Positions 9,563 to 53,965 are shown, counted from the stretch's first letter. The stretch: DNA of 64,000 nucleotides from Blastocatellia bacterium (GCA_963765495.1 CAVXWP010000001.1:1088001-1152000); one strand, 5' to 3'. Program-made: numbers and translations. The notes: generated from the letters alone by a model not told the origin.

Positions 9563-9658
9563 GTGATTCGTGATCTGGCAGACTTGCAAATAGTCTTGGA
9601 CAGGTGGCCTATCTGAAAATCACGGATCACGGATCACGTGGGCGCATCACGAATCACG
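9563..9658 (-). repeat. GTGA/TCAC heptamer-armed element with conserved 44-bp core (copy 1)
   Basis: Arms gtgattcgtgat / atcacggatcacggatcacg; core 9575-9618. Confidence 0.85.
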
Positions 9659-9670
9659 TAAAGGAGAGCT

Positions 9671-11257
9671 ATGGACCTGACCCTTACCCCGCTCAGATTC
9701 AAAGAGCGCGCCGTCACTCATTACGGCAATAAAGTAGGAATAATAGATGGCGATGTGCGGCTGACCTACCGCGAATTTGGCGAGCGCGCCGACCGTCTGT
9801 CGAACGCGCTTGCGGAGCTTGGCACCAATCGAAGGGACCGTGTCGCGTGGCTCGGTTATAACAGCCACGCGCTGCTCGAAGCCTACTACGGCGTAGTGCA
9901 GATGGGTGCGGTCCTGTTACCGCTAAACATCAGGCTTACGCCGCAAGAGATTGAATTCATACTCAATGATTCGGAAGCTACGACCCTCGTCTATAACAGA
10001 GATTTTTTGCCAATCGTCGAAGCGGTGCGCGCCGGGGCTAAAACTATAAGGCATTATATCCCGATTGAATCCGGCTCAGTGGCGGGCGACGAGATGGATT
10101 ATGAGACCCTGCTTTCAGCCGCAGGAGCCGATTTCACGCCTCCCTCAGACATCAAAGACGATGACCTGGCGGAACTCTTCTACACATCGGGCACGACGGC
10201 AAATCCCAAGGGCGTGATGATGACGCATCGCAATCTCTATCTCCACGCCTTGCAGGTGCTGGCGGGGATGGGCGTAAAAGACTCGAACGTACAGCTTCAC
10301 ACCATACCGCTTTTTCACGTCAACGGCTGGGGCACTCCGCACACCATCACGGGCGCGGGCGCTCGCCACGTAGTCGTAAAAAAATTCGACCCCGCGGAGG
10401 TTTTACAACTCGTCGAGCGAGAGCGGGTCACTCATTTTTCGATGGTCCCGACGATGGCCACGGCGCTCGTCAACTGCCCCTTGCTTGGCCAGTATGATCT
10501 GTCGAGCCTGGAATATGTAGGCATAGGAGGGGCGGCTGCGCCCACGGACCTGATCCGCGAGATAGAAGAAAAGCTTGGGTGTCGCGCCTACGGCGGTTAT
10601 GGCCTTACCGAAACCACCCCGGTGCTGACGTTCTCTTTTATAAAGGATCATTTGAAGGACTTGCCCGATGAAGAGCGATGGAGACGACAGGCGATGACCG
10701 GCTACCCCATGCCGGGCGTCGAGATGAGCATAGTCGATGCGGATGACAACCACCTGCCGCGAGACGGCGCAAGCGCAGGCGAGATAGTCGTCCGCGCAGA
10801 CAACGTGATGGCCGGTTATTGGAAACAGCCCGAAGATACGGCGCATGTTATGCGCGGCGGCTGGTTCCACACGGGCGATATGGCCACGATTGATGAGGAA
10901 GGCTACTTTCTGATAGTAGACCGCAAGAAAGACATAATCATATCGGGAGGCGAAAACATCTCTTCCATAGAAGTGGAAAAAGCGATCTTCTCGCACCCTT
11001 CGGTCTTTGAATGCGCGGTCATTCCCGTACCCGATGAAAAATGGGGTGAGGTTCCGAAGGCGCTCGTTGTCGTAAAGCCGGGCGAAACGCTCGACGAGAA
11101 GGAACTTATTGATCACTGCCGGACGAGGCTGCCCGGTTTCAAGATTCCAAAGTCAGTGATCTTTATGGATTCACTTCCAAAGGGAGGGACCGGAAAGATA
11201 CTCAAGAAAGAACTGCGCGAGAAATACTGGGAAGGTTACGAAAAGCGCGTCCACTAG
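9671..11257 (+). CDS. Fatty acyl-CoA synthetase (AMP-binding family), tandem paralogue
   Basis: YTSGTTANPKG, PLFHVNGWG, GWFHTGD and ISGGENISS motifs. Confidence 0.92.
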   Translation: MDLTLTPLRFKERAVTHYGNKVGIIDGDVRLTYREFGERADRLSNALAELGTNRRDRVAWLGYNSHALLEAYYGVVQMGAVLLPLNIRLTPQEIEFILNDSEATTLVYNRDFLPIVEAVRAGAKTIRHYIPIESGSVAGDEMDYETLLSAAGADFTPPSDIKDDDLAELFYTSGTTANPKGVMMTHRNLYLHALQVLAGMGVKDSNVQLHTIPLFHVNGWGTPHTITGAGARHVVVKKFDPAEVLQLVERERVTHFSMVPTMATALVNCPLLGQYDLSSLEYVGIGGAAAPTDLIREIEEKLGCRAYGGYGLTETTPVLTFSFIKDHLKDLPDEERWRRQAMTGYPMPGVEMSIVDADDNHLPRDGASAGEIVVRADNVMAGYWKQPEDTAHVMRGGWFHTGDMATIDEEGYFLIVDRKKDIIISGGENISSIEVEKAIFSHPSVFECAVIPVPDEKWGEVPKALVVVKPGETLDEKELIDHCRTRLPGFKIPKSVIFMDSLPKGGTGKILKKELREKYWEGYEKRVH

Positions 11258-11365
11258 GGAAAGGATGAAGGATGAAAACATGCCAGGGATACATTCTGAT
11301 TATTGCGGTTGATCATTTATCAGGATTTCTTCCTTGCAGCTTTTTATCCTTCATCCTTCATCCTT
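11258..11365. repeat. Hairpin element with AGGATGA/TCATCCT heptamer arms
   Basis: aaggatgaaggatgaa ... tttatccttcatccttcatcctt. The right arm supplies the last codons and stop of the 11344-11808 ORF. Confidence 0.75.
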
Positions 11366-11808
11366 AGCTTTTTTTTGAGCCGCCAGAGGGCGCGGGGCAT
11401 CGTGATCCACGCCGAACGGGGCAGACGCGACAAAGCCCGGGTGAGCATCTGTCGTTCGGGCTGGTCGAGTTTGATTTCACAACTCCAATCCCTTAGCCGT
11501 TCGTTTGCCTGCTCGAATCTTGCCTGCTCTTCACTCGAACTAGCTTGCTGTCCGTTCTGCTGGGCGTTTGCCATCAATTCAAAAATGCCGCTTTCGATCA
11601 ATCCTTCACGCAGGTGATTGTTCAGATGCCGAACGAGTTGCTTTTCGGGCGCGAGCGCGTTTATGCCCGTCAGATGCTCGAAGTCCTCGACTATGGGACA
11701 CGCCTCTTCACACGATGGAGATTCTGCCGACGTGGCTTCGGCAGGCGGGCCGCCTTCCAGTAAAAAGAGCAGCAGGCTTAGCTCTTGATGCGAAAACTCA
11801 ACTGTCAC
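11344..11808 (-). CDS. Hypothetical protein
   Basis: 154-aa ORF downstream of tatD with a GAAAGG RBS-like motif; no family recognised. Confidence 0.6.
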   Translation of the reverse strand: MTVEFSHQELSLLLFLLEGGPPAEATSAESPSCEEACPIVEDFEHLTGINALAPEKQLVRHLNNHLREGLIESGIFELMANAQQNGQQASSSEEQARFEQANERLRDWSCEIKLDQPERQMLTRALSRLPRSAWITMPRALWRLKKKLRMKDEG

Positions 11809-11828
11809 TTTAAGGTTCGCCTTTCAGA

Positions 11829-12617
11829 TCAGGGCTCCTGATCAAGCCGGAACAAACGCTTGAAGTTTGCGCTCGTCACGCGGCCTATCTCTTCGACCGC
11901 GAGGTTGCGAAGCCCTGCAATGCAACGCGCGGTCTCTACGACATAAGCGGGTTCGTTTCGGCGTCCGCGAAAAGGGACGGGCGCAAGAAACGGGCTGTCG
12001 GTTTCAATCAACAGTCTTTCAAGGGGAATGCTTGCGGCCGTCTGGCGTAAATCGTCCGCTTTTTTGAAGGTCACGACACCGGAAAACGATATAAAAAAGC
12101 CGAGCTTGATCGCCTCTTCGGCAAACCACCCGGTGCCGGTGAAACAATGAATTACTCCCGGCAATTCAGCGCCCGCCCATTCTTCGTGGAGCAGGGCAAG
12201 CGTATCCTCTTCCGCCTCGCGAGTGTGAATGCTCACGGGTAAGCGCAGCTTGCGCGCAAGCTGTAATTGTTTGCGAAAAGCCACGGCCTGAGCGTCACGC
12301 GGCGAGTTGTCGTAATGATAATCAAGCCCGATCTCGCCAATGGCGATCACCTTCGGATGCCGGGCGAGGTCCGCGAGTCTGTTGTAGAGATCGTCATCGA
12401 GCAGGCGAGCCTCGTGCGGATGGAGGCCAACGGTCGTGTATATAAACGGATGTTTTTCGGCTACGCGAAAGGCGGCCGAGTGAGAATCGCGAGCAACATC
12501 TCCGTTGCCTACGTTGACGATTATCTCGACTCCGGCATCCCTTGCGCGTTTTATCATCTGCTCGCGGTCGCCGTCGAAGTCTTCCATTTCAATGTGCGCG
12601 TGTGAATCTATATACAT
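11829..12617 (-). CDS. tatD: TatD family deoxyribonuclease
   Basis: DSHAH, GEIGLDY, IHTRE, HCFTG, ETDSPFLAP and RNEP motifs. Confidence 0.93.
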   Translation of the reverse strand: MYIDSHAHIEMEDFDGDREQMIKRARDAGVEIIVNVGNGDVARDSHSAAFRVAEKHPFIYTTVGLHPHEARLLDDDLYNRLADLARHPKVIAIGEIGLDYHYDNSPRDAQAVAFRKQLQLARKLRLPVSIHTREAEEDTLALLHEEWAGAELPGVIHCFTGTGWFAEEAIKLGFFISFSGVVTFKKADDLRQTAASIPLERLLIETDSPFLAPVPFRGRRNEPAYVVETARCIAGLRNLAVEEIGRVTSANFKRLFRLDQEP

Positions 12618-12635
12618 ATCGGTCCATCAGAAAAC

Positions 12636-13577
12636 TTAAGAGCCAAAGCTGAATCCGCCGCCGCCGCCGCTCGATTGCGAAGGAAAGAACGGCTTGAGCA
12701 GCCCGGCGAGCGCCGCAAGGTTTCGGGTCTGGATCAAAAGCTCGCCCGGCCCCTGAAATTCTGCGACTATGCCTTCCCCGCTCACAAGGCTGCGGAAGAA
12801 CCCCGCTGCCGCTTTGCGTAGCTGGTACTGCGTAGAGCCTTCCCATGCCACGAGATGTCCCGTATCGACTACATATCGCTCGCCCGGTCCCAATCGCTTG
12901 CGATGAATCGCGCCGAATGATGAGAGCAACAACAGCCCTGTGCCGTAAACCTGCAATACGAAAAGCCCCTCGCCCCCGAAGAAAGATTTCGCGCCGCCCC
13001 ATTTCGTATCAACCGTGAGCCCCGCGTCTCCGGCGAGGTATGAACTTGATTGCACGAAAAACATCTGATTGTTCATCTCTATCGCGGCGATGTCGCCGGG
13101 CGCGCCGGGCGCGAGCGTCACTTCGCCGGGGCCGCCCCTCGCCGTAAACGTAGAGACGAAGGCCGATTCGCCTCCCACGGCCCGCTTTAACGCGCCCATC
13201 AACCCGCCTTTCATCTGCGATTGCAACTCTACGTTTGCCGACATAGAAACCATAGCGCCCGCTTCGGCAAGAATCGATTGCTCTGCCTGCAAGTGAACCA
13301 CCGCAAGCGAAAACGCCGGTTGATGAAGTATCTCGTAGCTGTACCCGCGTCCCGTCCCTTGCGCATCATCGTCAATATGTATGCCGTGCCCGCCCCCCGA
13401 AGGATTTGGCTGCGGAGCGTTTGAGCCGTAGCCGGGCGGTGGGTTTTCATAGCCGGGCGGCGGATTGTTAGCGCCGTAGCCGGGTTGCGGATTGCCTGCT
13501 GCTTCAACGCGATTGCCGCAGAGTGTGCAAAACTGCGCGCCCGGAGCCAGTGCTCCACCGCATCTGGAACAGTTCAT
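12636..13577 (-). CDS. TIGR00266/AIM24 family protein with N-terminal zinc ribbon and Pro-rich linker
   Basis: CSRC...FCTLCG, then AEAGAMV, GGES.F, FGGEGLF and VDTGHLVAW. Confidence 0.88.
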   Translation of the reverse strand: MNCSRCGGALAPGAQFCTLCGNRVEAAGNPQPGYGANNPPPGYENPPPGYGSNAPQPNPSGGGHGIHIDDDAQGTGRGYSYEILHQPAFSLAVVHLQAEQSILAEAGAMVSMSANVELQSQMKGGLMGALKRAVGGESAFVSTFTARGGPGEVTLAPGAPGDIAAIEMNNQMFFVQSSSYLAGDAGLTVDTKWGGAKSFFGGEGLFVLQVYGTGLLLLSSFGAIHRKRLGPGERYVVDTGHLVAWEGSTQYQLRKAAAGFFRSLVSGEGIVAEFQGPGELLIQTRNLAALAGLLKPFFPSQSSGGGGGFSFGS

Positions 13578-13814
13578 GTCTTCCCTCCTTTATCAAGAAT
13601 CGACTGTCTCAAGCCCTAGTTGATACTCTACCATTCCAGGCGCGAAATCGACAGACCATCGGTTTGGCGATTCAAATCCGTATGAGTTGCTTTGCTCTCC
13701 GGGGCAATTAATGTATGATCGCCCTTCCCGATAATTTCGCGCTGCGATTCCTGCGCCAGAAACTCGATACTGTCGTCAAGCAGTAGGACTCTAATTCAAC
13801 GAAGGAGAATACTC

Positions 13815-14282
13815 ATGGGAAAAATCAACGTGGGTCGTGTGCTGCTCGGAGGTTTGCTTGCCGGTCTGGTGTTGAATATAGGTGAATATCTGGCTAACGC
13901 AGTATTGTTTGCCAGACAGATCGAAGATTCTATGCGCGCTTTGAATTTGCCGACTGCAAGCGGCAGCTTCATCGCGCTGGCCGTAACGGTCACTTTTGTG
14001 TTGGGCATTGCCATGGTGTTTTTGTACGCGGCGATACGGCCACGGTTTGGCCCCGGCATCAAGACCGCCGTCATCGCCGGGTTGATGGTATGGTTGCTTG
14101 CCTATGCCTATAACTCGGTATTGAATGTCGGTCTTGGAATATTTCCTCTGAATCTGACGTTGATCGGGCTCGTCTGGGGATTGGTGGAAGCGCCCCTTGC
14201 GGCTGTGGTCGGAGCCTGGGCTTACAAAGAAGAGGAGAGCGAAGCGCGCGTGTCGGACGCTTATCAGCAACGAGGGGCTTGA
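13815..14282 (+). CDS. Four-TM membrane protein of unknown function
   Basis: GAAGGAG RBS, four hydrophobic segments, YAAIRPRFGPG motif. Confidence 0.75.
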   Translation: MGKINVGRVLLGGLLAGLVLNIGEYLANAVLFARQIEDSMRALNLPTASGSFIALAVTVTFVLGIAMVFLYAAIRPRFGPGIKTAVIAGLMVWLLAYAYNSVLNVGLGIFPLNLTLIGLVWGLVEAPLAAVVGAWAYKEEESEARVSDAYQQRGA

Positions 14283-14315
14283 AGACGAGGGGCTTGAAGA
14301 CGAGGGACTTGAAGA
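14271..14315 (+). repeat. 15-bp tandem repeat CGAGGGGCTTGAAGA x3
   Basis: Read directly between the convergent membrane-protein and priA stop codons (third copy has one mismatch). Confidence 0.8.
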
Positions 14316-14327
14316 GGCGCTTGACGC

Positions 14328-16790
14328 TCACATCAAGCTTACGGGATCGACTTCGATAGAGATTGATCGCGGATTGTGGCCGAGCGCCGTAGCTTTGTCC
14401 ATCGCTATATCGAGAATCTCGCGGGCGCGGCGGCGACTACGCGCCTTTATCAATATCTGAAATCGGTGCTCGCCTTTGAGCCGGGCAAGCGGAGCGGGCG
14501 CAGGCCCAAGCACTCGAAGAGAGGAGTCGCGGGCCGCCTCTCTGAGTTCGCGCGCCAGATCGGTGGCCGCAAGATTTGCGCGATCAAACTCCTTATCACG
14601 CACGCAAATGTTTATGAGCGCGCTAAAGGGCGGATAGTGCATCGCCCGGCGAAAGCTTATCTCTCGCTGATAAAACGCGTCGTAATCCTGCGCCCGGGCA
14701 CAGACCAGAGAGTAATGCTCCGGGTGATAGGTCTGAATTATCACGCGGCCCGGCAACTCGCCGCGACCGGCTCTTCCGGCCACCTGCGTGAGCAGTTGAA
14801 ACGTCCGCTCGGCGGCTCGAAAATCGGGCAGCGACAGCCCCACGTCAACCGAGATCACGCCTACGAGTGTGACGTTATGAAAATCGTGACCCTTCGCAAG
14901 CATCTGCGTGCCGACGAGCATATCAATGGTCCCGGCTGCAAACTCCATCAGGATATGTTCAAGGCTGCCGCGCCGCCTGGTGGTGTCGCGGTCTACGCGG
15001 GCGATGCTCAATTCGGGAAATAATTCCTGCAACTTCGATTCAAGTTGCTCGGTCCCTTCGCCTACATACTGGATGTAAGGCCCGTCACAGGCAGGACAGG
15101 CGCGCGGCACGGGGCGAATGTAGTTGCAGTAGTGGCAGAGCAGGCTCGAATTATAACGATGATAGGTGAGCGTCACATCGCAGTTCGGGCAGCGCATAGC
15201 CGTGCCGCACGACCGGCACAGCGCGAACGAAGAATAGCCGCGCCGGTTCAAGAGGATCATGCTCTGCTCGCCGCGCTCGTGCGTTTCGGTGATGGCTGTC
15301 TTTAGCTCGTCGGAAAAGGTCTGAGACTTGCCGTATTTCTTGAAGACCTCGCGCATATCGACCGTCTGCACTTCGGCCAGCGCCCGGTTGCCGTAGCGGG
15401 TATCGAGCCTTATATAAGTAGACTTGTTTGTGCGCGCGTTGTGAAAGGATTCGAGCGAGGGCGTGGCCGAACCTATGACAACGACCGCGTGGGCCTGAAC
15501 GGCGCGCACTATAGCGGTGTCGCGTCCGTGGTAGCGCGGCGTCTCGTCCTGTTTGTAAGAAGTCTCGTGTTCTTCGTCTACGATGATGATGCCGAGGTTT
15601 TCAAGCGGAGCAAACACAGCCGAGCGAGTCCCGATTACCACACGCGCATCGCCGTCCTTGATGCGCCGCCACTCGTCGGTGCGTTCGCCTTCCGACAGGC
15701 TCGAATGAAGTATGGCAACCGCTTCGCCGAAATGCGCTCGCAGCCTGCGCGAAAAGACCGGCGTAAGCGCAATCTCGGGCACAAGCATCAAGGCGCTCAA
15801 CCCGCGATTCGTGGCCTCACGCATTGCCCGAATGTAAATCTCCGTCTTGCCGCTTCCCGTGACTCCGTGGAGCAGAAACGTAGCGTACTGGTGCTCATTG
15901 AGTTTTGCGACTATCTGATCGAGCGCGTGTTGCTGGTCTTCGTTGAGCGAAACAAGGTCAAGCTGATCCTGCCGAATGTGAGCGAGCGGGTCGCGTCGAA
16001 CCTCGCGGGGAAAGACTTCGATCAGGCCGCGCTTTTCAAGCGTCCGAACGACCGAAGCCGATACGTCAGCCTCTTCGAGCAATTCGCTGAGCGAAACATC
16101 GGTCTCGGCCATTTCCAGAAAGTCGATCACGCGCTGTTGCTGCTCTGTGAGCGGGCGGGGGCTTTTCTGGGGGCCAGGGGCCGGGGGCCCCCCCCTGAGC
16201 CGGACAGCATTCTGGAGCTTTGGCTTGAGACCGCTTTCGCCTACGCGATGGGCTACGTGGACGAGGCCCGCGCGTTCGAGTTGCCGGATGAGCGCCGCGG
16301 CGTGAGATTTCGAGAGTTGTCGTTCAAGCTCGCGGGAACTGATCGAGCCGGTATCGGCGAGCAGTTCGAGCGCCTGATGTTTTGAAGAGGACCACGCAAA
16401 CCCGGCCTGCGATTGAGCAACCATCGAGCGCCCCGCTTCCGTGATCGTCAGCACCTGTTCGGTGGCTACGGTAGCGCCAGCGGGCAGAGCCGTCCTCAGA
16501 CATTCGCCCCAGGGCGCGTGGTAATAATCGGCCATCCATTTTGTCAGTTCCAGAATATCGGGCGTGATGATGGGAGATTCGTCTACGAGTTCTTCGACAT
16601 CTTTTATATCGGAAGAAGCGATTTCTCCATCGAGTTGTTTATGCAGAGAGACGATAAAACCGGTCAGGAGCTTTTTGCCGAAGGGAACGATTACGCGGCA
16701 GCCGGGGAGGGCACGAAGCGCCATATCGCCCGGCAGGTGATAAGTAAACGTCTGTCTGACATGGACGGGAACCGCAACCTCCGCAAACAT
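14328..16790 (-). CDS. priA: Primosomal protein N' (replication restart helicase); start corrected to ATG at 16790
   Basis: MFAEVAVP...FTY start, [13 protein letters not shown], two CxxC pairs, GTQMLAKG. Confidence 0.95.
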
Positions 16791-16816
16791 CAGCCGTATT
16801 GTACACGATGCGGGCG
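16755..16816. repeat. Direct repeat copy A: priA -10 box plus first ~12 codons
   Basis: 57/62 identical to 20540-20601. Confidence 0.92.
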
Positions 16817-16848
16817 ACAGCCGAAAACCTGAACGGCGAACAAGGAAA

Positions 16849-19651
16849 TTACATGTATAGAGACTGTTGATTTGATGTGAGAAGGAACAGATCAACTTCC
16901 TGACGGTAAACCCATTCGTCGTCGTGTTGTGGACCCTCTCTGGAAATATACCGATGATTGAACTCGCCCATAATCTCTTCTGAAGAAGGCGGAGGATTTG
17001 TTGTCAGGTCATTATAAACCGCGATAGCGCGATCACGTTCCCCTAGTTCACCAAAAGAATGGAGGCGCAAGATATTAGCCTGCGGTTGAAGCATCGGAAA
17101 TGTGATTTGCTCAAGTACTTCACTGGCTTTCCTGAATTCATTCTGTCGAAGCCATGCAGCGCCCAAAGCTGTAAGAAAGTATTGCCTGCTGGAGGGCCAA
17201 GGACAACCTATCGCGCCATGCTCAAACACTTGTAATGCCTCATCTGTTTGGCCCATTCGTAACAGAATCATCCCGCGTATGTGGTAGCCAATCCAGTCTT
17301 CGTGGCTAGTTGGAACTTTATCCGGCAGATATGAAATAGCCTCCTCGTAACGTCGCAAAGCGGCAAGAACGCAACTCCGTCCATTTCTAGCTATAGAATC
17401 TTGCGGATGCGCAGTAACAATGTCGTTGTAAGCGGCAAGAGCATTTTCAAAACGGCCAAGTGCCTTCAATACCTCTGCTCTTCCAGTCTTGGCGATGACA
17501 TCCTCAGGATGCTCGACAATGACCTCATCATAGGCAGCAAGAGCATTTTCAAAACGGCCAAGTGCCTTCAATACCTCCGCTCTTCCAGATCTTGGCGATG
17601 ACATCCCCAGGATGCTCGACAATGACCTCATCATAAGCGGCAAGAGCATTTTCAAAACGGCCAAGTGCCTTCAATACCTCTGCTCTTCCGTCTTTGGCGA
17701 TGACATTTTCAGGATGCTCGACAATGACCTCATCATAGGCAGCAAGAGCATTTTCAAAACGGCCAAGTGCCTTCAATACCTCCGCTCTTCCAGTCTTGGC
17801 GATGACATCCTCAGGATGCTCGACAATGACCTCATCATAGGCAGCAAGAGCATTTTCAAAACGGCCAAGTGCCTTCAATACCTCTGCTCTTCCGTTTTTG
17901 GCGATGACATCCTCAGGATGCTCGACAATGACCTCATCATAGGCAGCAAGAGCATTTTCAAAACGGCCAAGTGCCTTCAATACCTCTGCTCTTCCGTTTT
18001 GGCGATGACATCCTCAGGATGCTCGACAATGACCTCATCATAGGCAGCAAGAGCATTTTCAAAACGGCCAAGTGCCTTCAATACCTCTGCTCTTCCGTTT
18101 TTGGCGATGACATCCTCAGGATGCTCGACAATGACCTCATCATAGGCAGCAAGAGCATTTTCAAAACGGCCAAGTGCCTTCAATACCTCTGCTCTTCCGT
18201 TTTTGGCGATGACATTTTCAGGATGCTCGACAATGACCTCATCATAGGCAGCAAGAGCATTTTCAAAACGGCCAAGTGCCTTCAATACCTCTGCTCTTCC
18301 GCTTGGCGATGACATTTTCAGGATGCTCGACAATGACCTCATCATAGGCAGCAAGAGCATTTTCAAAACGGCCAAGTGCCTTCAATACCTCCGCTCTTCC
18401 AGACTTGGCGATGACATCCCCAGGATGCTCAGCGATGACCTCATCATAAGCAGCAAGCGCCTTATCAAGGTGACCGAGTGCTTTCAGTACCTCTGCTCTT
18501 CCCCTCTTAGCTACGGCCCCAGCCCCAAATGAATATGCTTGTTCATATGCCCTTAATGCTTCATTTGGTTCTTGCATGTTTAAAAGCGCATCTCCGTATT
18601 GCGTCCAGGACCAGGCATCGTCAGGCTCCAGATTGATACTTCGCTCTGTCAGTTCTAGCTGCAAAGAGTACATGCCTAGAGCTTTTGCTTCGACTGCCAG
18701 ATCACATAATGACTTAACCAAAAACTTAGAACCGCCGTACCGTAGCTGATACTCAATGAGTTGATCTATAATTTCGCGAGCGCGTCCAATTTCTCGCCGT
18801 TGCATGGAATCAATTATTAATCTCTTCTGGCTTTCGACGTTTGCGAGTACAACTTCACGATTGATACCTGCTCGACGCCCTTTGCTTTTCCTTGATGAAC
18901 GGTTGCTTTCGGTTTCTTCTTCTATTTCGGGCCTTATGACTTGCGGCTCTTCTGTGATGCGAAAGGGTTTTACCCATTGCTGCAATATCGTTCGATGGTT
19001 TTTCAGCGCCTTTATTGAAGGTTTCCACAAAGAGTTAATGAGAAATTGGTTTACCTCTTCATTGCCGCGCCTGATGGCGAGGTCGCGGAAAAGCCCTTCC
19101 TGAATTGCAGTGTGGTGGAATTTTGTCTGTTCCTCAACTCCTCCGAACATCGTCACGGGGATACCGTCCCAGGATGAGCAGGCGAGACGTATAGACGGCT
19201 GATTCTCTCTGAGTCGTTCCAGCAGAGTGTATGCTCTGTTTGCCTGACTCTTATCGCGTAAACTCAAAGCTCCGTCAATATCGGCTGCATCGGGCAGGGG
19301 CCGCCCATAAAGTACGCTTTCCAGTTTCAACTCAATATCCGCGTCAATAAGCAATTCTTCGAGCGCATCTATGGCTTCGGCTCTGGTTTCATCCGAAAGC
19401 TCGGAGTCAAGCGCGATCAACGTCAGGTCAAGCGCAGCAGATGAGTTATAAGCTCGTTCCAATTCCTGCGCGACCTGAGCGCGGTCTACGTCTTCGAGAA
19501 ATTGAAGGTCGCTCGCATCGCCGAAGAGGAAGGGAAGGTCCGCCTGACGTCTGGGCACACAGGTATTCGGGTCGTCCACGTCGAACGACATCAGTGTGTT
19601 GCCTTCTATCAGTAGCGCCATTCCTGCGCGCCCGGAAATCGCTGCGTTCAT
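16849..19651 (-). CDS. Large TPR-repeat protein (~930 aa if continuous), broken by three frameshifts within the repeat array
   Basis: ORFs 18263-19651, 17977-18375, 17549-17980 and 16849-17664 join into one protein with the 34-aa unit [34 protein letters not shown]. Indels near 18300 (-2), 17998 (-1) and 17589 (+1). Confidence 0.8.
17425..18505. repeat. 102-bp tandem repeat array (10 near-identical copies plus 1 degenerate)
   Basis: aaaacggccaagtgccttcaatacc recurs about every 102 bp from ~17450 to ~18365. Confidence 0.95.
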
Positions 19652-20511
19652 CGCTTTACCTTCAGTGTGGCTCCCGTCTTTTCGAGCCTCTGCCTCAGAG
19701 CTTTAATTCTAACATTTTGGATTGTATTCTTGCGCGGGGTAAAGGTGACTCGCTCTATAGTCCGAGCGGTCATTGGCCCCCAAATATGTACCTCTACAAA
19801 TTCATCTTCTTCGGAGGTCGCGCCCTGGCGCAACAGCAGTCCAGAGTATTCATCTGCTCGTGTCGTGCTGTCAATACTCCCGGCGAGCTTGGCGACGCAG
19901 AGTTTATGCCGATTTTCCCACGTCGCACGGTAGCCTTTAGGAAGGGTTGGTGTATCGTACACCTCGACATTCCGGTGTTTCATGAACATCACCGAGTTCT
20001 CTTCAAATACAGAGGCGCGATGCGCGATCATATCGGTGCGAAAGACTAGCCAGCACTCGCCGTAGTTAGACAAACCAACCCCATCGAGTGAAAGCGCGGC
20101 GAACCGGATATGCTTTTTATAGCCGGGAAAAAGCGCGCTATCAGTTACGGCGCGCAAGATGTCCCATTTGTTGCCTTCGGGCAATCTGATTTCTGCTTCT
20201 GTTAGCTGGTAGTATGTTGCGTAAAGCTCGTTATCGCTTGTAGCGAGCCTCTCGACTTCGGCTAAGGAGCGCGAGATGACAACCACTGTGTTTGCCAAAG
20301 CAGCCTCAAAGTTATTAACGGCTTCATCTGCTCCGCGAGTTGCGGCCTCTGTTCTGGCTGTCTGGTAGCGATCTTCTAATGCTGAGTACTCGTCCGGGTC
20401 TTCGGCGGCGCGAACATTCGGAGGAGGACACCATCTTCCGCAATGCGGGCATCGATCAACCGAGGATGGGATATGATTATTACAATTAAGGCATAAATAC
20501 AATCTGCTCAT
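19648..20511 (-). CDS. Zn-ribbon plus DUF3626-like (putative ADP-ribosyltransferase-fold) protein
   Basis: CLNC..CPHC N-terminus. R..TDSALFPGY, IRFAALS..G...YGECWLVF, HRASVFEENS and DEFVEVHIWGP parallel DUF3626 motifs as recalled. ATGA overlap with the TPR gene. Confidence 0.55.
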   Translation of the reverse strand: MSRLYLCLNCNNHIPSSVDRCPHCGRWCPPPNVRAAEDPDEYSALEDRYQTARTEAATRGADEAVNNFEAALANTVVVISRSLAEVERLATSDNELYATYYQLTEAEIRLPEGNKWDILRAVTDSALFPGYKKHIRFAALSLDGVGLSNYGECWLVFRTDMIAHRASVFEENSVMFMKHRNVEVYDTPTLPKGYRATWENRHKLCVAKLAGSIDSTTRADEYSGLLLRQGATSEEDEFVEVHIWGPMTARTIERVTFTPRKNTIQNVRIKALRQRLEKTGATLKVKR

Positions 20512-20539
20512 GAGCGTTTACACCACGTTTTGCTGTCGT

Positions 20540-21731: not shown

Positions 21732-21760
21732 ACCCGACTATTCATAAAGAGAGATAATTT

Positions 21761-21829
21761 GCCACAGAGGCACCGCAGACACAGAGATTTCTTACAATCT
21801 TTTCTCTGTGTCTGCGGTGCCTCTGTGGC
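21761..21829. repeat. Perfect 27-bp inverted repeat between convergent genes (CCACAGAG-type palindrome)
   Basis: gccacagaggcaccgcagacacagaga-N15-tctctgtgtctgcggtgcctctgtggc. Confidence 0.9.
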
Positions 21830-26359: not shown

Positions 26360-26474
26360 GTGATTTGTGAAGAGTGATACGTGAAGAGTGATGCGTGAGA
26401 TTTGCAATCAGCCTGTAAATGCCATCTGTAAATGCAATTTCCTGAAAGTCACGAATCACGAATCACTCTTCACG
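26360..26474 (-). repeat. GTGA/TCAC heptamer-armed element (copy 2, diverged core)
   Basis: gtgatttgtgaagagtgatacgtgaagagtgatgcgtga ... cctgaaagtcacgaatcacgaatcactcttcac between prfA and prmC. Confidence 0.8.
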
Positions 26475-26477
26475 TGG

Positions 26478-28712: not shown

Positions 28713-28775
28713 AATATTGGTTGCCGGATGCCGCTTTATACATGTTGATACTTGCGGCATTCGGCAACCAATATT
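28713..28775. repeat. 22-bp inverted repeat between rpmE and DUF1385
   Basis: aatattggttgccggatgccgc ... gcggcattcggcaaccaatatt (one mismatch). Confidence 0.75.
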
Positions 28776-35305: not shown

Positions 35306-35424
35306 AGTGACGCACAATACTTGATGCGTGAAGAGTGATTCGTCATTAACCAGGCTTGCAAGTTGTCTAAAACATGCAGCCTGCCTGAGAGTCACGTATC
35401 GCGCATCAAGAATCACGCGTTACG
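35306..35424 (-). repeat. GTGA/TCAC heptamer-armed element with 44-bp core (copy 3)
   Basis: Core 35347-35390. The right arm overlaps the stop of the amine oxidase gene. Confidence 0.85.
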
Positions 35425-38457: not shown

Positions 38458-38562
38458 GTGATTCGTGAAGAGTGATCGATGATCCGTGATTTTCAGGTAA
38501 GCCGCCTGTTATAGACATCTTGCATGTCTGGTAAATCATGGATCACCGATCACTCTTCACGG
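38458..38562 (+). repeat. GTGA/TCAC heptamer-armed element with 44-bp core (copy 4)
   Basis: Core 38491-38534; begins immediately after the TAA. Confidence 0.88.
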
Positions 38563-43118: not shown

Positions 43119-43188
43119 TCTGATCCTGGATGTGAGTTTTCAGATGTTTACAAGGGTTCTAACGACCGGCATCCGCCTTGCGGATAAA

Positions 43189-43722: not shown

Positions 43723-43751
43723 AGGCGGGAAACAGCAAGCGGGAATTTATA

Positions 43752-44174: not shown

Positions 44175-44176
44175 CC

Positions 44177-44260
44177 TGATTTGTGAAGCGCGATGCGTGA
44201 CTTTCAGGCAATCACCTGTTAAATAAGGTTCTCGCTGGCTTCATAAATCACGGATCACGG
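44177..44260 (+). repeat. GTGA/TCAC heptamer-armed element (copy 5, 45-bp core)
   Basis: gtgactttcaggcaatcacctgttaaa ... atcacggatcacgg. Confidence 0.78.
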
Positions 44261-44279
44261 AACATGCATATCTGAAAAT

Positions 44280-45215
44280 ATGGCAACAGCTATACAGAAA
44301 TATTTACTGGCTCCGCGCGTGCCTAACATCGCGGCCGGATTTGTTGACAACCAGTTTGCCGTAGTGGATGTCAGGCGCGGGCGTCGCGGCTACTCGCTTG
44401 CCGCCAGCGCAATCACTCAACTGCCGCAAGGGGTGGTGACGGCAAGTTTCGACGAACAAAATATCGATAACCCAGACGAACTTGCCGAGATAATTTTGCA
44501 AACGGCGGAGGCCGCCGGGCTTGGGAACAAGAAGCGATGGTCAATTGCCTTGCCCGAAGGCGTACTGCGTACCTTTGTGGTCACGCTTGAGAGCAAACCC
44601 TCCGGGCGCCGCGAACTGAACGAAGTGCTGGAGTGGAAGATAGAGCGCGTCATCCCCGCGCCTCCTTCCGCATTGCGTATCAGCCGACAGCGATTAACCC
44701 CCCTAAAGGGGCAGGAGCGTTATCTGGTGAGCGCCGGTCGTGAAGATGTGATTTCGCAATACGAATCAATCTTTGACGCGGTACGCTGGCACGCGGGGCT
44801 TATTTTGCCGCGTCATCTGGGCGAGGCGCAGTGGATTATGCTCGATCAAACGCCGGGCGATAAGATGCTAGTATCAGCCAACCACCTTGGCTTTACTGCC
44901 CTGATAGTCAGAAACGGCGAGCCCGCGCTAACCCGCACATACGAATGCGAGCCCGATTCAATCATAGACGAATTGCATCGCTTTGCGCTCTACTATCGCG
45001 ACCGCTTGGGCGATGGAGGCGTTGTCGATCTTTCAGGATTACTGGTGCTTGGCGGCATCAACCTGGCCGAGGCTTTGAGCGCCATCGTTGATGCTACGGA
45101 AAGCGAGCCGCAGCCCATTGATCCGGCGCGGTTCGGATTTGATCTGATCGGCGAGCCTATAGAATTCGATGATCTCGCGGGTGTGGCGGGACTGGCAAGC
45201 ATCGCATATCAGTAA
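44280..45215 (+). CDS. PilM/GspL-like cytoplasmic actin-fold assembly protein
   Basis: Position at the end of the operon; IALPEGVLRTFV...EVLEWKIE pattern typical of PilM-like proteins. Confidence 0.65.
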   Translation: MATAIQKYLLAPRVPNIAAGFVDNQFAVVDVRRGRRGYSLAASAITQLPQGVVTASFDEQNIDNPDELAEIILQTAEAAGLGNKKRWSIALPEGVLRTFVVTLESKPSGRRELNEVLEWKIERVIPAPPSALRISRQRLTPLKGQERYLVSAGREDVISQYESIFDAVRWHAGLILPRHLGEAQWIMLDQTPGDKMLVSANHLGFTALIVRNGEPALTRTYECEPDSIIDELHRFALYYRDRLGDGGVVDLSGLLVLGGINLAEALSAIVDATESEPQPIDPARFGFDLIGEPIEFDDLAGVAGLASIAYQ

Positions 45216-48200: not shown

Positions 48201-48449
48201 CGGCTCGTCCAGTCTGGAAAGAGATTCGAGCGCCTTGCGGAATTCATCCCCGCGCGCGGCAGATAATTCTGCTTTCAGGCGCACCTGTCTTGCGCGCCTG
48301 AGGCCGTCATCAAAAGCCCCGCGTTGTTTTCCCGTATCGGTTTGAGCCGAGACAGTGAGATAAAAACTAAATCCGGCGATCAGCAGCGCCAGGGGAGCTA
48401 GAAAGACCAGCAGCGCAACCAAACGGCGAGGAATGAACTTCTTCATCAA
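45216..48449 (-). CDS. Secreted M14 zinc carboxypeptidase with N- and C-terminal accessory domains
   Basis: HHAREW, NPDG, GVDLNRNY, DYHNFS and VEMRP motifs; signal peptide. Confidence 0.88.
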   Translation of the reverse strand: MMKKFIPRRLVALLVFLAPLALLIAGFSFYLTVSAQTDTGKQRGAFDDGLRRARQVRLKAELSAARGDEFRKALESLSRLDEPGALDVWQEALKTPDIELRREAWAKYQKVRRSLIERETIPRVARIPAPADEILSIAQSVGIDANIWSKAGNDTVVAAPDFLIERLRREGYYAEVLYPSIADWQRARATGDQLAKAITPAYQSEEVVSQVRIAVVSLSKQRPPQAGYSDWLGDQENILMSNDSFLAYLDIFPSDGSDNSINSHIEEKYGRRGYTLAGFFTLDEFAATVTRFFHGKTFDPGHGRAKESDTKGSGAKESSNVHLALAEGKFHSYEETLAEFKALAAAHPTLARVVNLGPSFEGRQIFALKIAKDPEIDDSSKPDVLITGCHHAREWISVEPPVYFANQLIGGYETDEKIRLLVNTLQIWIVPIVNPDGLEYSQSSPNDQIDATRMWRKSRRPVSASGCANGIGVDLNRNYAFQWRLQGDDPCPNYNDDRGASDDPVNELYRGPKAESEPEIKAIKSLVDDPNRHFRVEIDYHNFSQLILYPWGYQRGNTPDSALLVPMAQRMSDDIFNVNGVRYKAQRAFDLYVTTGSSSDYAYEVNRVAAPIVVEMRPACCNFNVPESEIEPINRENWAGALPVLEWAVGPPILESVKAYQKAPGGDFSKLVYSANWARPTAASGGLRQLKVDTRSPVLEPGSPLRVELKFSKPMDTSSLVATLGRNEQINEASFADAVEVGGWKKTDYTNDTWIGDTVIPQDDNLTNAWQLKVEAKDAEGDSLDAAPATIASYATGTGAWQGYEDSNGAGTTGGFDTQHVMSPSLRAGFVYVFVGTPTGGERLAGGDPYLVTWTTTKTANFIPAQNEVWLSTNGGVNFNRIATGIPGDAEKSMVVLPAISTDHARLRVIVRGVGGNAVFGDNEAEFSVGSNVNSAVDISFISSELVDLNWSDTSSDGFNTQSSGSSRLVINLSIKNHSDIPITNPFLRVSQLSRNNVLLSRDLKSKPVGGARQSLTTSEGNLLAPGETIEARLEVGLVVRKKFALWIDLYGTPPEGALPLGSSVRVWKGKPKTKSN

Positions 48450-48622
48450 TATCCCCTACAAGTATTTCCCCTACAAGGGTTTATCAAAACCCCGGCGATA
48501 CGTCAAGAATTTTTGAGATTCCTTGACAACCGCCCGGCCTTTCGATAACTTTTCTTGTTGCTTTTTTAATGATCTCGGCAGCATAGGGACACCACTCTTA
48601 GTAGATTTAGTTTTGGAGGTAA

Positions 48623-49639
<1,017 letters not shown>

Positions 49640-49643
49640 AAAC

Positions 49644-49748
49644 TGATGAAGCGTGATGCATGACGGGTGATTTATCCGGGCTGCAAGTTATCTTTAACAA
49701 GCGGCCTGTCTGAAAATCACCCGTCACGCATCACGCATCACGAGTCAC
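49644..49748 (-). repeat. GTGA/TCAC heptamer-armed element with 44-bp core (copy 6)
   Basis: Core 49672-49715 between gap and pgk. Confidence 0.88.
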
Positions 49749-49753
49749 TTTCT

Positions 49754-50956
49754 ATGTCCAAGCTTTCAATATCTGATCTGGACCTCAAGGGTCAGCGCGT
49801 CTTTATGCGCGTTGATTTCAACGTGCCTCTGGATGAGGACGGAAACGTCACCGACGACACGCGGATACGGGCGGCGCTGCCAAGCATAAAGTATGCGCTC
49901 GACCACGGCGCGCGGCTGGTGCTTGCCTCTCATCTCGGCAGACCAAAGGGGAAGCCCGACCCTAAATATTCGCTCGCGCCCGCCGCCCGCCGCCTCTCAG
50001 AGTTACTCGGGCGCGAGGTAGAGCTTGCGCCCGATTCCGTTGGGCCGGAAGTCGAAGCTATGGTAAAAGACCTGGGCGAAGGCGACGTGCTGATGCTCGA
50101 AAACGTGCGTTTTCACGCGGGCGAAGAGAAGAACGACCCCGAGTATGCGCGCGGTCTTGCATCGCTCGCCGATCTTTATATCAACGATGCCTTCGGCACT
50201 GCCCATCGCGCTCACGCTTCCACGGAAGGCATAACTCATTTCGTCGAAAAAGCGGCTGCCGGTTTCCTGATGGAGAAGGAGTTGCAATACCTCGGGCAGG
50301 CTCTGGAAACCCCCGAGCGCCCGTTTGTGGTCATTCTCGGCGGAGCCAAGGTGTCGGACAAGATCGCCGTGATCGAAAACCTTTTGAAATCTGCCGACTC
50401 GATTTTGATCGGCGGCGCTATGGCCTATACGTTTCTCAAATCACAGGGGCTTGAGACGGGGCGATCTCTTGTCGAAGATGATAAACTCGATCTCGCCCGC
50501 AGTTTACTCGCCCGCGCAAAAGAGAGCGGCGTCGAGCTTTTGCTGCCGGTAGACAATGTAGTTGTGGATAAAGGCAAATGGGACAGCGACCCGCAATCCG
50601 TAGAGCCGCGCGTCTGTTCTGTGAAAGAGATTCGCCCCGAAGAAGCAGGGTTTGACATTGGCCCCGAGGCCATAAAGCAATTTACCGAAAAGATAGCCGG
50701 AGCAAAGACGGTTGTCTGGAACGGCCCCGTCGGTCTGTTTGAGCGAGAGCCGTTTGACCGGGGTACGAGAGCCGTCGCCGAAGCCGTTGCCTCGACCGAT
50801 GCCACGACGATCATAGGCGGCGGCGACTCTGTAGCGGCAGTGACCGAAGCCGGGGTAGTGGACCGCATCGCGCACGTCTCTACAGGCGGTGGCGCATCGC
50901 TTGAGTTTCTTGCAGGCGAGCGGCTTCCCGGTGTGGCCGCTCTGACCGATAAATAG
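49754..50956 (+). CDS. pgk: Phosphoglycerate kinase; start corrected to ATG 49754
   Basis: RVDFNVP, SHLGRP, GGAKV and STGGGASLE motifs. Confidence 0.97.
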
Positions 50957-50991
50957 GCCCGATTATTTACGAACCAGAGGATTTGTTAGAA

Positions 50992-51624
50992 GTGAAACCC
51001 CCTAGAAAATTAATTATGTCTTTGCTGCTCGTTGCGGCGGCTGTATCGCTTCCGGCCTGCGGAAAGAAGCCGGCTTATGACAATATTCAACTCAATCAAA
51101 ACAGCGCGCCTCAGCCGACTGATGCTGCCGCAAGCAATACCAGTGAGACGCAGCCCGACGCGCCCGCTCAACCCGAAGCGAACCCCCAGCCCGATCAAAC
51201 CGCTCCGGTTCCGGGGCAACCGCCTGCGGGACAACCGCAACCGGCGCCTGCTCAGCAGGGCGAGAGAAAGTTGCCGGATTTCGTCAATCCAAACACAGGG
51301 CAGATCAAAGACCTGCCCGATTATCCCAATGCTGTCAGGGTCAATGTGCAGGTTGGACCTGCATCCAGTGGCAAAATGGCTTCTGTCGTCATGCAGGCGA
51401 ATACCACTATAGAAGAGGTAGACAAGTTTTATGGGAAGGCGATAAAGAGCAACGGGTGGAGTGTGAATCGCGAAAGCCGCCAGCCGGATTCGATAAGAAT
51501 TGAACTCAAAAAAGGCGAGCTTCAGGAGGGGCTGATACAGATCATGAAATCTCCCCAGACCAGCAACATAACTATCTCACTGACTCGGCTCGAAAAGGAA
51601 GCGCCGCCAAAAGTGATCAAGTAA
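50992..51624 (+). CDS. Pro/Gln-rich lipoprotein of unknown function
   Basis: Lipobox LPAC after a hydrophobic stretch; low-complexity linker; C-terminal P.YP.A...FY......GW domain. Confidence 0.72.
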   Translation: MKPPRKLIMSLLLVAAAVSLPACGKKPAYDNIQLNQNSAPQPTDAAASNTSETQPDAPAQPEANPQPDQTAPVPGQPPAGQPQPAPAQQGERKLPDFVNPNTGQIKDLPDYPNAVRVNVQVGPASSGKMASVVMQANTTIEEVDKFYGKAIKSNGWSVNRESRQPDSIRIELKKGELQEGLIQIMKSPQTSNITISLTRLEKEAPPKVIK

Positions 51625-51650
51625 TCCCGCCCAGGATATTGGAAATTACC

Positions 51651-52415
51651 ATGCGAAGACCTGTCATAGCCGCAAACTGGAAGATGTACAAGACGATTTC
51701 TGAAGCGGTGGAATTCGTCCGAGAATTTAAGCCTCTTGTTGTGTCGTCAACTCACTCGGACATAGTGCTGGCCCCGCCCTTCACTTCGATGAAGGCGATA
51801 GCAGACCGCCTTGAAGGGTCGAATATAGCCGTCGGTGCGCAGGACGTGGCGGCAGAGGGTGGGCCGGGCGCATTCACCGGAGAAGTGTCTGCCGCGATGG
51901 TCAAAGATGCCGGGGCGAGTTACGCGATCATAGGTCATTCGGAGCGACGGCAATATTACTGCGAAACCGACGAATGGGTAAATCGTAAGATTAATTCTGC
52001 GACAAAGGCCGGACTCCTCCCCATAGTCTGTTGCGGAGAGCGGCTTGAAGATAGAGACTCGGGCCGAGCCGAAGATGTGGTAAAGCGGCAACTCGGCGAA
52101 GGATTGCAAAACTTGACAGTAGAGGAAGCCGCCCGTATCATTATCGCTTACGAGCCTATATGGGCAATCGGCACAGGGCGCACTGCAACACCGGAAACTG
52201 CCGAACATATGCACGCCTTTATCCGATCCCGCATACGCGAGATGTTTGGTGAAAAGGTGGCCGCAGATTTGAGAATAATCTACGGCGGCAGCGTGAAACC
52301 GGATAACATCGCCTCGCTGATGAGCGAGGCCGATATTGACGGCGCGCTGGTTGGCGGAGCAAGCCTTGAGGCGGGCTCGTTTGCGAAGATAGTAAATTAC
52401 AAAGAGAACAGGTAG
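51651..52415 (+). CDS. tpiA: Triosephosphate isomerase
   Basis: ANWKM, GHSERR, AYEPIWAIGTG and YGGSV. Confidence 0.97.
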   Translation: MRRPVIAANWKMYKTISEAVEFVREFKPLVVSSTHSDIVLAPPFTSMKAIADRLEGSNIAVGAQDVAAEGGPGAFTGEVSAAMVKDAGASYAIIGHSERRQYYCETDEWVNRKINSATKAGLLPIVCCGERLEDRDSGRAEDVVKRQLGEGLQNLTVEEAARIIIAYEPIWAIGTGRTATPETAEHMHAFIRSRIREMFGEKVAADLRIIYGGSVKPDNIASLMSEADIDGALVGGASLEAGSFAKIVNYKENR

Positions 52416-52423
52416 GTTTAATA

Positions 52424-52879
52424 GTGATTGGTTATATCTTAATGGCGCTTTATATTATTTCCTGTTTTGTCCTGATACTGTTCGTGCTTTTACAGCCGGG
52501 CAAATCGGATGCGGCAGCGGTTTTTGGCGGTGGTGCGAATTCGACGGCCTTCGGGCCGCGCGGCACGGCGACTGTGCTTGCGAAGGTGACTATAGGAGCT
52601 GCAATAGTATTCTTCTTAACGGCCTTCTTGTTTTCGATTCCCGGATTGTTTGCAAAACGCTCGCTCGGCGAAGGCGTAGGCCCCGCAGAGCAGACGGCCC
52701 CGGCCCCGCCCGCGACACCCCTTCCGGTGACGCCGGAATCCAGTGCGCCTCCGACCGCACAGCCCGGAGTGAATGATAAAGGGTCCACGACTGACTCAAC
52801 GTCGTCTACGGACAGCGGGGCGAAAAAGGAGCAACCGGCACCGCCAAAACAGGATTCTCAAAAGCCTCCGAACAAGTAG
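52424..52879 (+). CDS. secG: Preprotein translocase subunit SecG with Pro-rich C-terminal extension
   Basis: VLLQPGK...FGGG.....FG.RG...L.K.T; tpiA-secG-tRNA-Leu synteny. Confidence 0.9.
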   Translation: MIGYILMALYIISCFVLILFVLLQPGKSDAAAVFGGGANSTAFGPRGTATVLAKVTIGAAIVFFLTAFLFSIPGLFAKRSLGEGVGPAEQTAPAPPATPLPVTPESSAPPTAQPGVNDKGSTTDSTSSTDSGAKKEQPAPPKQDSQKPPNK

Positions 52880-52959
52880 CTAGCGATTTATTAGCGGCAA
52901 AAGCAAAGACGGTTTGCAGTTGGGAAGTAAGCATTGTTGTTTGAGAGATTGAATTTTTT

Positions 52960-53041
52960 GGGGATGTGGCGGAACAGGTAGACGCGCACGTTTGAGGGGC
53001 GTGTGGGGCAACCCGTGAGAGTTCGAGTCTCTCCATCCCCA
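52960..53041 (+). tRNA. tRNA-Leu(GAG), CCA not encoded
   Basis: Acceptor GGGGATG/CATCCCC, anticodon loop TT-GAG-GG, long variable arm, GTTCGAGTC T loop. Confidence 0.95.
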
Positions 53042-53172
53042 TTGACAAAACATTATCAGTGCATCTGGGACAAGTAATTCCTTCGGCACCAATTACATCT
53101 CTATTTTATAGATAGGCCTGAGCCAGAAAGCTCAGGCTTATTTCATTACCGGCCTATTTCCATCTAACCGAA

Positions 53173-53238
53173 TTGACACCTGCAAAGCGTGACCATATTA
53201 TTAACAGCCTTGTTACGTGTTTGTTAATAAAATGTAAA
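53173..53238 (+). promoter_or_regulatory. sigma70 promoter followed by Pho-box-like triple direct repeat
   Basis: TTGACA-N17-TATTAT (53173-53201), then TGTTAC/TGTTAA/TGTAAA at 53211/53222/53233 (11-bp period). Confidence 0.65.
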
Positions 53239-53248
53239 GAGAGGTGTT

Positions 53249-53860
53249 ATGGGGCTGTTTCCGCGAGACGAGAAATACTTCGGCCTGCTCAGCCAACTGG
53301 CGGGCAAAGTTCGGCAGGGTGGCGAACTGTTTGTGAAGTTATTCCAGGATTACGAGAATCACGCCGGATACGCCGATCAGATCAAGCAGATAGAGTTGGA
53401 ATGCGATGATCTTGCGGCAAAGATCACGGCGAAGTTGAATTCAAGCTTTATTACGCCCATTGATCGAGAAGATATATTTCTGCTCGTCACGGAACTCGAT
53501 GACGTGATTGATATGACTAATGATCTGGCGCGCAGGCTTGAGACATACGGAGTGGCTGCGCCAAAGCCGGAAGCCATAGAGGTGGCCGGTCTTCTGGGCC
53601 GGGCCACGGCTGAGATCGAGAGCGCGTTCCTTATGCTTGAGCAACACGAAGCAATGAACGAACACCTCCGAACTATAAGCCAGCTTGAGAAACGCGCCGA
53701 CTCGCTTTTCAGCGATGCGATTCGCCGTCTCTTCAGAGAAGAGAAGGACCCCATCGAAGTCATAAAATGGAAATCCATCTTTGAAGAACTCGAAGAATCT
53801 GTTGACCGATGCAAGGATGTGGCCGAGGTGCTTGAGGCCGTCATGGTTAAAAACAAATGA
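53249..53860 (+). CDS. DUF47 family phosphate transport regulator (PhoU-like)
   Basis: FITPIDREDI and LDDVID motifs; upstream of pit. Confidence 0.9.
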   Translation: MGLFPRDEKYFGLLSQLAGKVRQGGELFVKLFQDYENHAGYADQIKQIELECDDLAAKITAKLNSSFITPIDREDIFLLVTELDDVIDMTNDLARRLETYGVAAPKPEAIEVAGLLGRATAEIESAFLMLEQHEAMNEHLRTISQLEKRADSLFSDAIRRLFREEKDPIEVIKWKSIFEELEESVDRCKDVAEVLEAVMVKNK

Positions 53861-53965
53861 TCCGTGATCCGTGATTGTCAGGCAGGCCATCTGTTAAAGA
53901 TGACTTGCAAACCTGCCGTATCAGCATCACGCATCACGTATCACGCATCACGTATCACGTATCAC
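53858..53965 (+). repeat. GTGA/TCAC heptamer-armed element with 44-bp core (copy 7)
   Basis: Core 53876-53919. The TGA stop is part of the left arm; the right arm has about 6 ATCACGY units. Confidence 0.88.

Follow-up and report, generated by a model that had tools for sequence, protein, structure and literature searches.

In a survey of 7,006 prokaryotic genomes tandem heptamer arrays came out as the most abundant intergenic repeats, with "no clear clue" to their function (10.1101/309039). The closest described examples come from Xanthomonas and Nostoc, with the repeats GGGAATC and GGGGA(C/T)T (Rehm et al., 2015; PMC4692102): 70 inverted heptamer pairs are counted in Xcc and 75 in Xac, and the repeats, which are transcribed, lie within 50 bp of stop codons or overlap them, between co-oriented genes and rarely between divergent ones. 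The TAACTGA repeats of Beggiatoaceae, Cyanobacteria and Bacteroidetes are likewise intergenic heptamer arrays in essential operons, with a patchy distribution across phyla for which transfer is suspected, no mechanism being given (MacGregor, 2015; PMC4679880). Heptamers are also found in the stem of the intervening sequence (IVS) of the Coxiella 23S rRNA gene, which encloses an S23p/PF05635 open reading frame and is cut and excised by RNase III; how such rRNA insertions arose, and what the PF05635 proteins do, is left unexplained (Warrier et al., 2016; PMC4990558). Here we analyze a hairpin element with inverted GTGA/TCAC heptamer arms in a stretch of 64,000 nucleotides from a Blastocatellia bacterium (GCA_963765495.1, CAVXWP010000001.1:1088001-1152000), hereafter the window.

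Our best reading is that the seven copies of this element in the window belong, as empty and non-autonomous members, to a broad class of hairpin insertions with heptamer arms. The gene-bearing form of the class encloses a gene for a PF05635 four-helix-bundle protein, and stands between the genes of operons as well as within 23S rRNA genes, as the coding IVS. A preliminary description had noted the element from the sequence alone; its architecture is not new, inverted heptamer pairs by stop codons having been reported from Xanthomonas and Nostoc (PMC4692102). The GTGA hairpins are a real lineage-specific family of this described but unexplained repeat class, and the lead to a partner gene concerns the class.

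Anatomy and placement of the GTGA/TCAC copies

Seven copies in both orientations had been listed in the preliminary description, and a direct check of the window found each of them in its place:

9563-9660, minus strand: copy 1; GTGA/TCAC arms, 46-nt core at 9574-9619; in a tandem pair of acyl-CoA ligase genes, 1 nt past the stop of the first gene
26360-26476, minus strand: copy 2; GTGA/TCAC arms, divergent 50-nt core at 26399-26448; after the prfA stop (minus strand) and before prmC
35307-35423, minus strand: copy 3; 46-nt core at 35346-35391; flanked by convergent genes for a histidine kinase and an amine oxidase, the stop of the latter lying within the arm
38458-38561, plus strand: copy 4; 46-nt core at 38490-38535; immediately past the stop of a gspF/pilC-type gene, ahead of a gspE/pilB-type gene
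44177-44262, plus strand: copy 5; decayed arms, divergent 47-nt core at 44201-44247; 2 nt past the stop of a pseudopilin gene
49644-49749, minus strand: copy 6; 46-nt core at 49671-49716; gap-pgk junction; the strongest hairpin, z -11.1 on the transcribed strand
53858-53973, plus strand: copy 7; 46-nt core at 53875-53920; DUF47-pit junction, with the DUF47 stop codon in the first arm unit and a long right arm

The element is about 100 bases in size and has inverted arms of period 7 built from the unit GTGANNN, the number and the sequence of the units varying among the copies. All 29 of the GTGA-N3-GTGA or TCAC-N3-TCAC pairs in the window lie within the seven copies, and 50 order-3 Markov simulations gave a mean of 1.5 such pairs and a maximum of 6. 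Five cores have one fixed length and align without gaps, as first described; they span 46 nt between the innermost GTGA and TCAC, or 44 nt if one extra base on each side is counted as arm. Over the 10 pairs, 29-35 of the 46 positions are identical (63-76%, mean 70%), a divergence of 24-37%, and one core has been copied to five unrelated sites. The count of five matches to the core pattern against 0.02 expected is circular, since the pattern was built from those five copies. The copies at 44177 (47-nt core) and 26360 (50-nt core) share the arms and the initial core bases YTTTCAGG with the other five, and a hidden Markov model (HMM) of the five cores misses both at E≤10 in a scan of 238,587 bases. 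The inner part of the core is a loose, imperfect palindrome, and a long hairpin is predicted for all seven copies (z -3.1 to -11.1; 8 folds). A coding origin of the core, one frame of which is open in several copies, was dropped, there being no start codon and no protein match.

Each copy starts within 4 nt of a stop codon, in agreement with the earlier observation; for the copy at 26360 this is the minus-strand prfA stop. The upstream stop lies outside the arm in six of the seven, so that the association is not produced by the TGA of the repeat itself. With respect to the upstream gene the core is in sense orientation in four copies and antisense in two, and one copy lies between convergent genes. 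The neighbors are housekeeping and pilus genes without a common function (acyl-CoA ligases, gspF-gspE, a pseudopilin), and the sites inside the gap-pgk, prfA-prmC and DUF47-pit operons are as had been reported; the downstream spacer is intact at the insertion sites. The density had been taken to imply hundreds of copies per genome, which is an extrapolation from the window. The gene order of the window gives an impression of Acidobacteriota.

Inspection of all intergenic stretches of the window revealed six further inverted-heptamer hairpins with other units and unrelated cores (no strand assigned):

57261-57318: GATTTTG/CAAAATC arms; pilB-pilT junction
58498-58630: AGGGATG/CATCCCT arms; pilT-pilC junction; unrelated core
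11259-11365: AAGGATG/CATCCTT arms; between convergent genes
55019-55120: GTAGTCC/GTGGTCC-type arms; overlaps the pit stop codon; unrelated core
7405-7485: GGGGGCC/CCGACCC arms; immediately past the purB stop
5197-5283: GGTGGTC/GACCACC-type arms; past the stop of an M16-type peptidase gene

A generic detector of inverted heptamers yields 6 close pairs for the window, against none in 20 simulations. Taken together, each of the 13 hairpins starts no more than 4 nt away, on either side, from the end of a stop codon; 11 are in the 33 co-oriented junctions, 2 in the 5 convergent ones and none in the 6 divergent ones, even though the last offer 1,774 nt of free DNA. Part of this asymmetry arises because the ribosome-binding site must be kept, and the purS coordinates used in the junction analysis were off frame, which touches one start-side distance and, slightly, the intergenic total.

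PF05635 genes between heptamer arms

BLAST with the GATTTTG-arm hairpin of the window led, under one match, to a Gloeocapsa gene annotated as a four helix bundle protein. The gene belongs to PF05635 (E 1e-17), begins at the upstream stop and is flanked by inverted arms of the GATTTTG heptamer; in all, GATTTTG/CAAAATC encloses PF05635 genes in plasmids of Gloeocapsa, Chlorohelix and Planktothrix. Relatives of the Gloeocapsa gene were found in 32 plasmid records, from which 16 loci were chosen for taxonomic spread: 12 of these score at least 4 for inverted period-7 arms, with scores of at most 2 at periods 5, 6 and 8-11, while none of 27 control genes from the window exceeds 3 and the mean for mismatched flank pairs is 1.25. 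Searches with 41 and 44 records contributed five more loci, of which two score at period 7, two at period 8 and one not at all (0). Inverted arms of 7- or 8-mers are thus present in 16 of the 21 PF05635 loci; in four of the five that score low the gene is surrounded by inverted repeats of 24-72 nt, and the fifth is unclear. One of these four sits inside a 23S rRNA gene of Azospirillum and so links the intergenic form with the coding IVS of rRNA. Arms of period 8 rather than 7 stand at PF05635-type genes at L025 ~19850-20400 and L027 ~735-1250. The heptamer-armed genes and hairpins are often within plasmid defense operons (DISARM, BREX, type I restriction, DUF1156/DUF499), as in loci L006, L007, L009, L010, L012, L021 and L027.

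Peptides of the CAAAATC-type arm end 66 of 120 homologs of one PF05635 subfamily and 1 of 120 controls; named members of this subfamily come from Cyanobacteria, Chloroflexia, Blastocatellia and Acidobacteria. These sequence counts, which ignore shared descent, suggest that subfamily and heptamer are paired. In Chlorohelix a PF05635 gene lies between two complete empty units, which form a 112-nt direct repeat of 97% identity (L009:480-591 and 977-1088). This unit-gene-unit layout is cassette-like, and a locus that lost the gene would be reduced to a unit resembling those of the window. Gloeocapsa and Chlorohelix carry an element at the DUF1156-Swt1 junction, where Meiothermus has a 6-bp gap; these are distant genomes, and the comparison covered 3 of the other 53 records. 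Two cyanobacterial Swt1 loci considered as possible empty sites proved uninformative, with a different upstream gene and no arms.

A modeled PF05635 protein (pLDDT 94.8) matches 2RLD and 2GSC first, and next the accessory protein Avd (4DWL; probability 1.00, TM score 0.76/0.85, E 0.086) and reverse-transcriptase complexes of diversity-generating retroelements, in line with PMC10053308. Among the annotated flanking genes of the loci fetched, neither a template/variable repeat nor a reverse transcriptase gene is found beside the PF05635 genes.

The preliminary description had proposed that a four-helix-bundle or Avd-like gene might lie between such arms; this holds for the class, in the form of the PF05635 loci, but no such gene was found between arms of the GTGA family in the loci and proteins searched. 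The window copies have inverted heptamer arms in a long stem, as do the PF05635-bearing, IVS-like elements, and their cores of 46-50 nt enclose no PF05635 open reading frame (ORF); we therefore term them empty relatives rather than members of those elements.

Spread of core and arms, and the competing explanations

The exact 32-letter pattern of the core has 3 matches in 185,579 GTDB species genomes, none with arms, about 9 being the estimated chance expectation under a uniform base model; two of the three reach E values of just 0.1 and 1.5 with the core HMM. As far as exact matching can tell, diverged cores being missed, the 46-nt core looks private to the lineage. The core had been proposed as a conserved protein-binding or recombination site; any broad conservation is contradicted by these armless matches, and by the unrelated cores of the six sister hairpins and of a GTGA/TCAC hairpin just past a stop on a Deinococcus plasmid. 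That hairpin takes the arm type beyond the lineage, as does a translated-arm profile, which 1157 of 8000 candidate proteins match, the names in the best 120 of the 1157 including Anaerolineae, Desulfococcaceae and Nitrospirae; judged by such sequence matches, the arm type occurs across phyla. Translated arm repeats are seen inside many membrane glycosyltransferase and TPR proteins (P0134-P0233), several of them named Anaerolineae, which suggests in-frame insertions. A Desulfococcaceae reverse transcriptase (P0156) has a called N-terminus of ~85 residues of TCACG-type arm repeats, a single case to which we give no weight.

Searches for known families were negative. Rfam, a match in which had been named among the findings that would refute the preliminary reading, has none for any of the seven copies at either the gathering score or E≤5. 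In BLAST, three GTGA copies and a single arm searched against plasmids, and one copy searched against phages, had no full-length match, and no insertion sequence (IS) end was matched in either; the translated core and arm found no protein in one search and 13 arm-driven matches in another. Repeats of 3-5 nt near the ends occur in four of the seven copies, at differing offsets, and also in 981 of 2000 random spans, so that no target duplication is seen, a very short one still being possible in this comparison without empty sites. The variable arms are not the fixed terminal inverted repeats, shared with an IS, of a MITE (a miniature transposable element with inverted repeats). These results support the earlier view that the element is dispersed, copied and non-coding, has a preference for gene ends, and belongs neither with the classical repetitive extragenic palindromes (REP) nor with the MITEs.

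A family relationship of the window hairpins to the PF05635 elements seems to us somewhat probable, and the fuller statement that the GTGA copies are empty relatives of those elements mobilized in trans we regard as evenly balanced. How they might be copied is put forward tentatively, a route through RNA and a reverse transcriptase being on the unlikely side. By such a route the element would be transcribed within the operon mRNA and would fold, whichever way it is oriented, into a long stem that RNase III could cut as it does the rRNA IVS. A four-helix-bundle pentamer encoded elsewhere in the genome would recognize the cognate heptamer arms and, like its structural homolog Avd, would assist a reverse transcriptase, acting in trans, in copying the element to further gene ends; the core of 46 nt would be the loop of one ancestral copy that spread in the lineage.

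Several observations weigh against this account. No gene was found between the GTGA family's own arms in the 64-kb window, the 21 loci or the arm-peptide proteins, and a PF05635 profile of one subfamily finds no gene in the window. Arms of GTGATCC/GTGATGC type are present in none of the 21 PF05635 loci, the nearest being GTGACCA-type units around a Euhalothece PF05635 gene (L020); TCACG-type peptides end none of 120 PF05635 homologs (one subfamily only), and PF05635 is absent from the best 120 of the 1157 proteins with TCACG-type peptides. These partner searches are weak, covering one or two subfamilies, mostly from cyanobacterial plasmids, and favoring long arrays. The 21 loci were themselves hand-picked for taxonomic spread, mostly from cyanobacterial plasmids, with arms looked for around PF05635 genes only, and arms cross-paired between loci still score at least 3 in 15% of cases. 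The match to Avd has only 9% identity at its E of 0.086, and PF05635 proteins are not known to have catalytic activity. Within a copy the left and right arms are no more alike at variable positions than between copies (permutation p 0.11-0.17), the five core sequences give no support for covariation, and none of the seven copies was matched by an orthologous site without the element, loci of relatives not being among the sequences compared. Finally, 90% of the Xanthomonas repeats are at the same place in two species (PMC4692102), so that present-day mobility may be low.

Such stability would also be expected of old, now immobile mRNA hairpins that the host keeps for processing, stability or translational coupling in its operons, their arms growing by slippage with no dedicated mobilizer. 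Strong folding, the strict position after stops with an intact downstream spacer, the divergence among the cores and the transcription and stable position of the Xanthomonas repeats (PMC4692102) all agree with this, and a post-transcriptional role has been proposed for the TAACTGA repeats (PMC4679880). However, one 46-nt core at five unrelated loci requires a copying step, either orientation is tolerated, the cores lack covariation, the neighboring genes share no function, and by exact pattern the core is absent from GTDB representatives apart from the armless matches. We consider this explanation unlikely as a whole, although such a role can equally be a later one of a mobile element.

The copies might instead be REPIN/TIR-like DNA hairpins moved by a HUH tyrosine transposase of the IS200/IS605 family (RAYT or TIRYT) encoded elsewhere, four-helix-bundle genes being mere passengers of similar elements. 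The missing target duplication, the hairpin fold, the two orientations and the position downstream of genes are as in REP biology, and a pair resembling a GTAG-type REP is present in the window at 7803-7887. PMC3733652 describes TIRYT genes and families of TIRs, an Acidobacteria group among them; its main text does not contain the term "heptamer". The GTAG or CGTC tag is however found at the ends of none of the seven copies, and their arms are variable-number heptamer arrays and not a fixed palindrome; the genes between heptamer arms were PF05635, though the search looked around PF05635 genes only. Transposition of this kind strikes us as improbable. The 48 window ORFs scanned include no RAYT or TIRYT gene.

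The preliminary reading of the copies as attC-like cassette recombination sites, with the fixed-length core as recombinase site, is very improbable and true attC largely refuted: the imperfect inner palindrome, the position after stop codons and the cassette-like Chlorohelix gene between direct-repeat units speak for it, but the attC end boxes (consensus RYYYAAC...GTTRRRY) are found in none of the seven copies on either strand, the orientations are mixed, the flanking genes are housekeeping genes, no integrase is among the 48 ORFs scanned and, by the searches above, the core is not conserved outside the source genome.

Other repeats were noted in the window. A lone GGGGCCA heptamer array lies within the priA ORF (16170-16189), with no partner arm nearby. 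The inverted pair at 7803-7887 starts with GTAGGGGC and ends with GCCCCTAC, and resembles a GTAG-tagged REP doublet. Between convergent genes there is a perfect 27-bp inverted repeat of CACAGAG-like units (21761-21829), a kind of repeat that can stand beside GxxExxY genes, and the junction of DUF1385 with an L31-like gene carries a 22-bp inverted repeat without heptamer periodicity (28713-28775). A TPR-repeat gene on the minus strand (16849-19651) is split into four overlapping ORFs over a 102-bp tandem array (17435-18502; 10.5 copies, 94%), the splits being frameshifts or assembly errors, and a sub-threshold tRNA match of 24 bits on the minus strand (514-595) is possibly a tRNA fragment at an integration boundary.

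Comparison with known systems

If the hairpins are empty PF05635 elements, the three questions of the intergenic heptamers, the PF05635 proteins and the source of rRNA intervening sequences come down to one testable system, made up of a small protein with the Avd fold, a recognition code of 7 bases and insertion at stops. The GTGA family, whose core can be traced, is well suited as a marker for dating and mapping insertions; without the link to PF05635 it would be a further lineage-specific family within a described class of repeats. A wider possibility, of which we are doubtful, is that the abundant intergenic heptamer repeats of bacteria are the arms of one unrecognized superfamily of mobile hairpins, to which the coding 23S rRNA IVS would also belong. 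Every subfamily of the PF05635 (Avd-fold) proteins would then read its own heptamer code and license RNA-mediated copying of gene-bearing and empty elements to sites just after stops, and the at least seven arm types here would include the GTGA family as one burst of an empty element. A literature search that covered few subscription papers found none linking intergenic heptamer hairpins to PF05635 genes or describing the GTGA family.

Like the Xanthomonas and Nostoc repeats, which are variable-number heptamer arrays often in inverted pairs (PMC4692102), the window copies have tandem heptamers in an inverted pair, adjoin stop codons and avoid divergent junctions. They differ in the heptamer, which is GTGANNN and not the G-rich, G-quadruplex-like GGGNATC or GGGGAYT, and in the fixed-length core shared between the arms; the Xanthomonas and Nostoc account, in its accessible part, names no mobilizer, mechanism or partner gene. 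The TAACTGA repeats are similar as intergenic heptamer arrays in essential operons, but are described as direct repeats that lie upstream of start codons, just one case being inverted, and have no core (PMC4679880). The REP/REPIN and TIR families are likewise small, dispersed, non-autonomous hairpins downstream of genes in both orientations, built as fixed palindromes of 20-40 bp with a GTAG/CGTC tag (Di Nocera et al., 2013; PMC3733652), whereas the window copies are untagged heptamer arrays with no HUH partner seen. The Avd protein of diversity-generating retroelements (PDB 4DWL; PMC10053308) appears from the model to have the fold of the PF05635 proteins between heptamer arms, for which a role in retro-copying would follow by analogy. 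The window copies lack the ORF of the coding 23S rRNA IVS and stand in mRNA junctions, not in rRNA, and they may be cut by RNase III; with that IVS they share terminal inverted repeats, a variable number of heptamers and a long stem, features found likewise in the Azospirillum 23S rRNA and around the PF05635 genes of operons.

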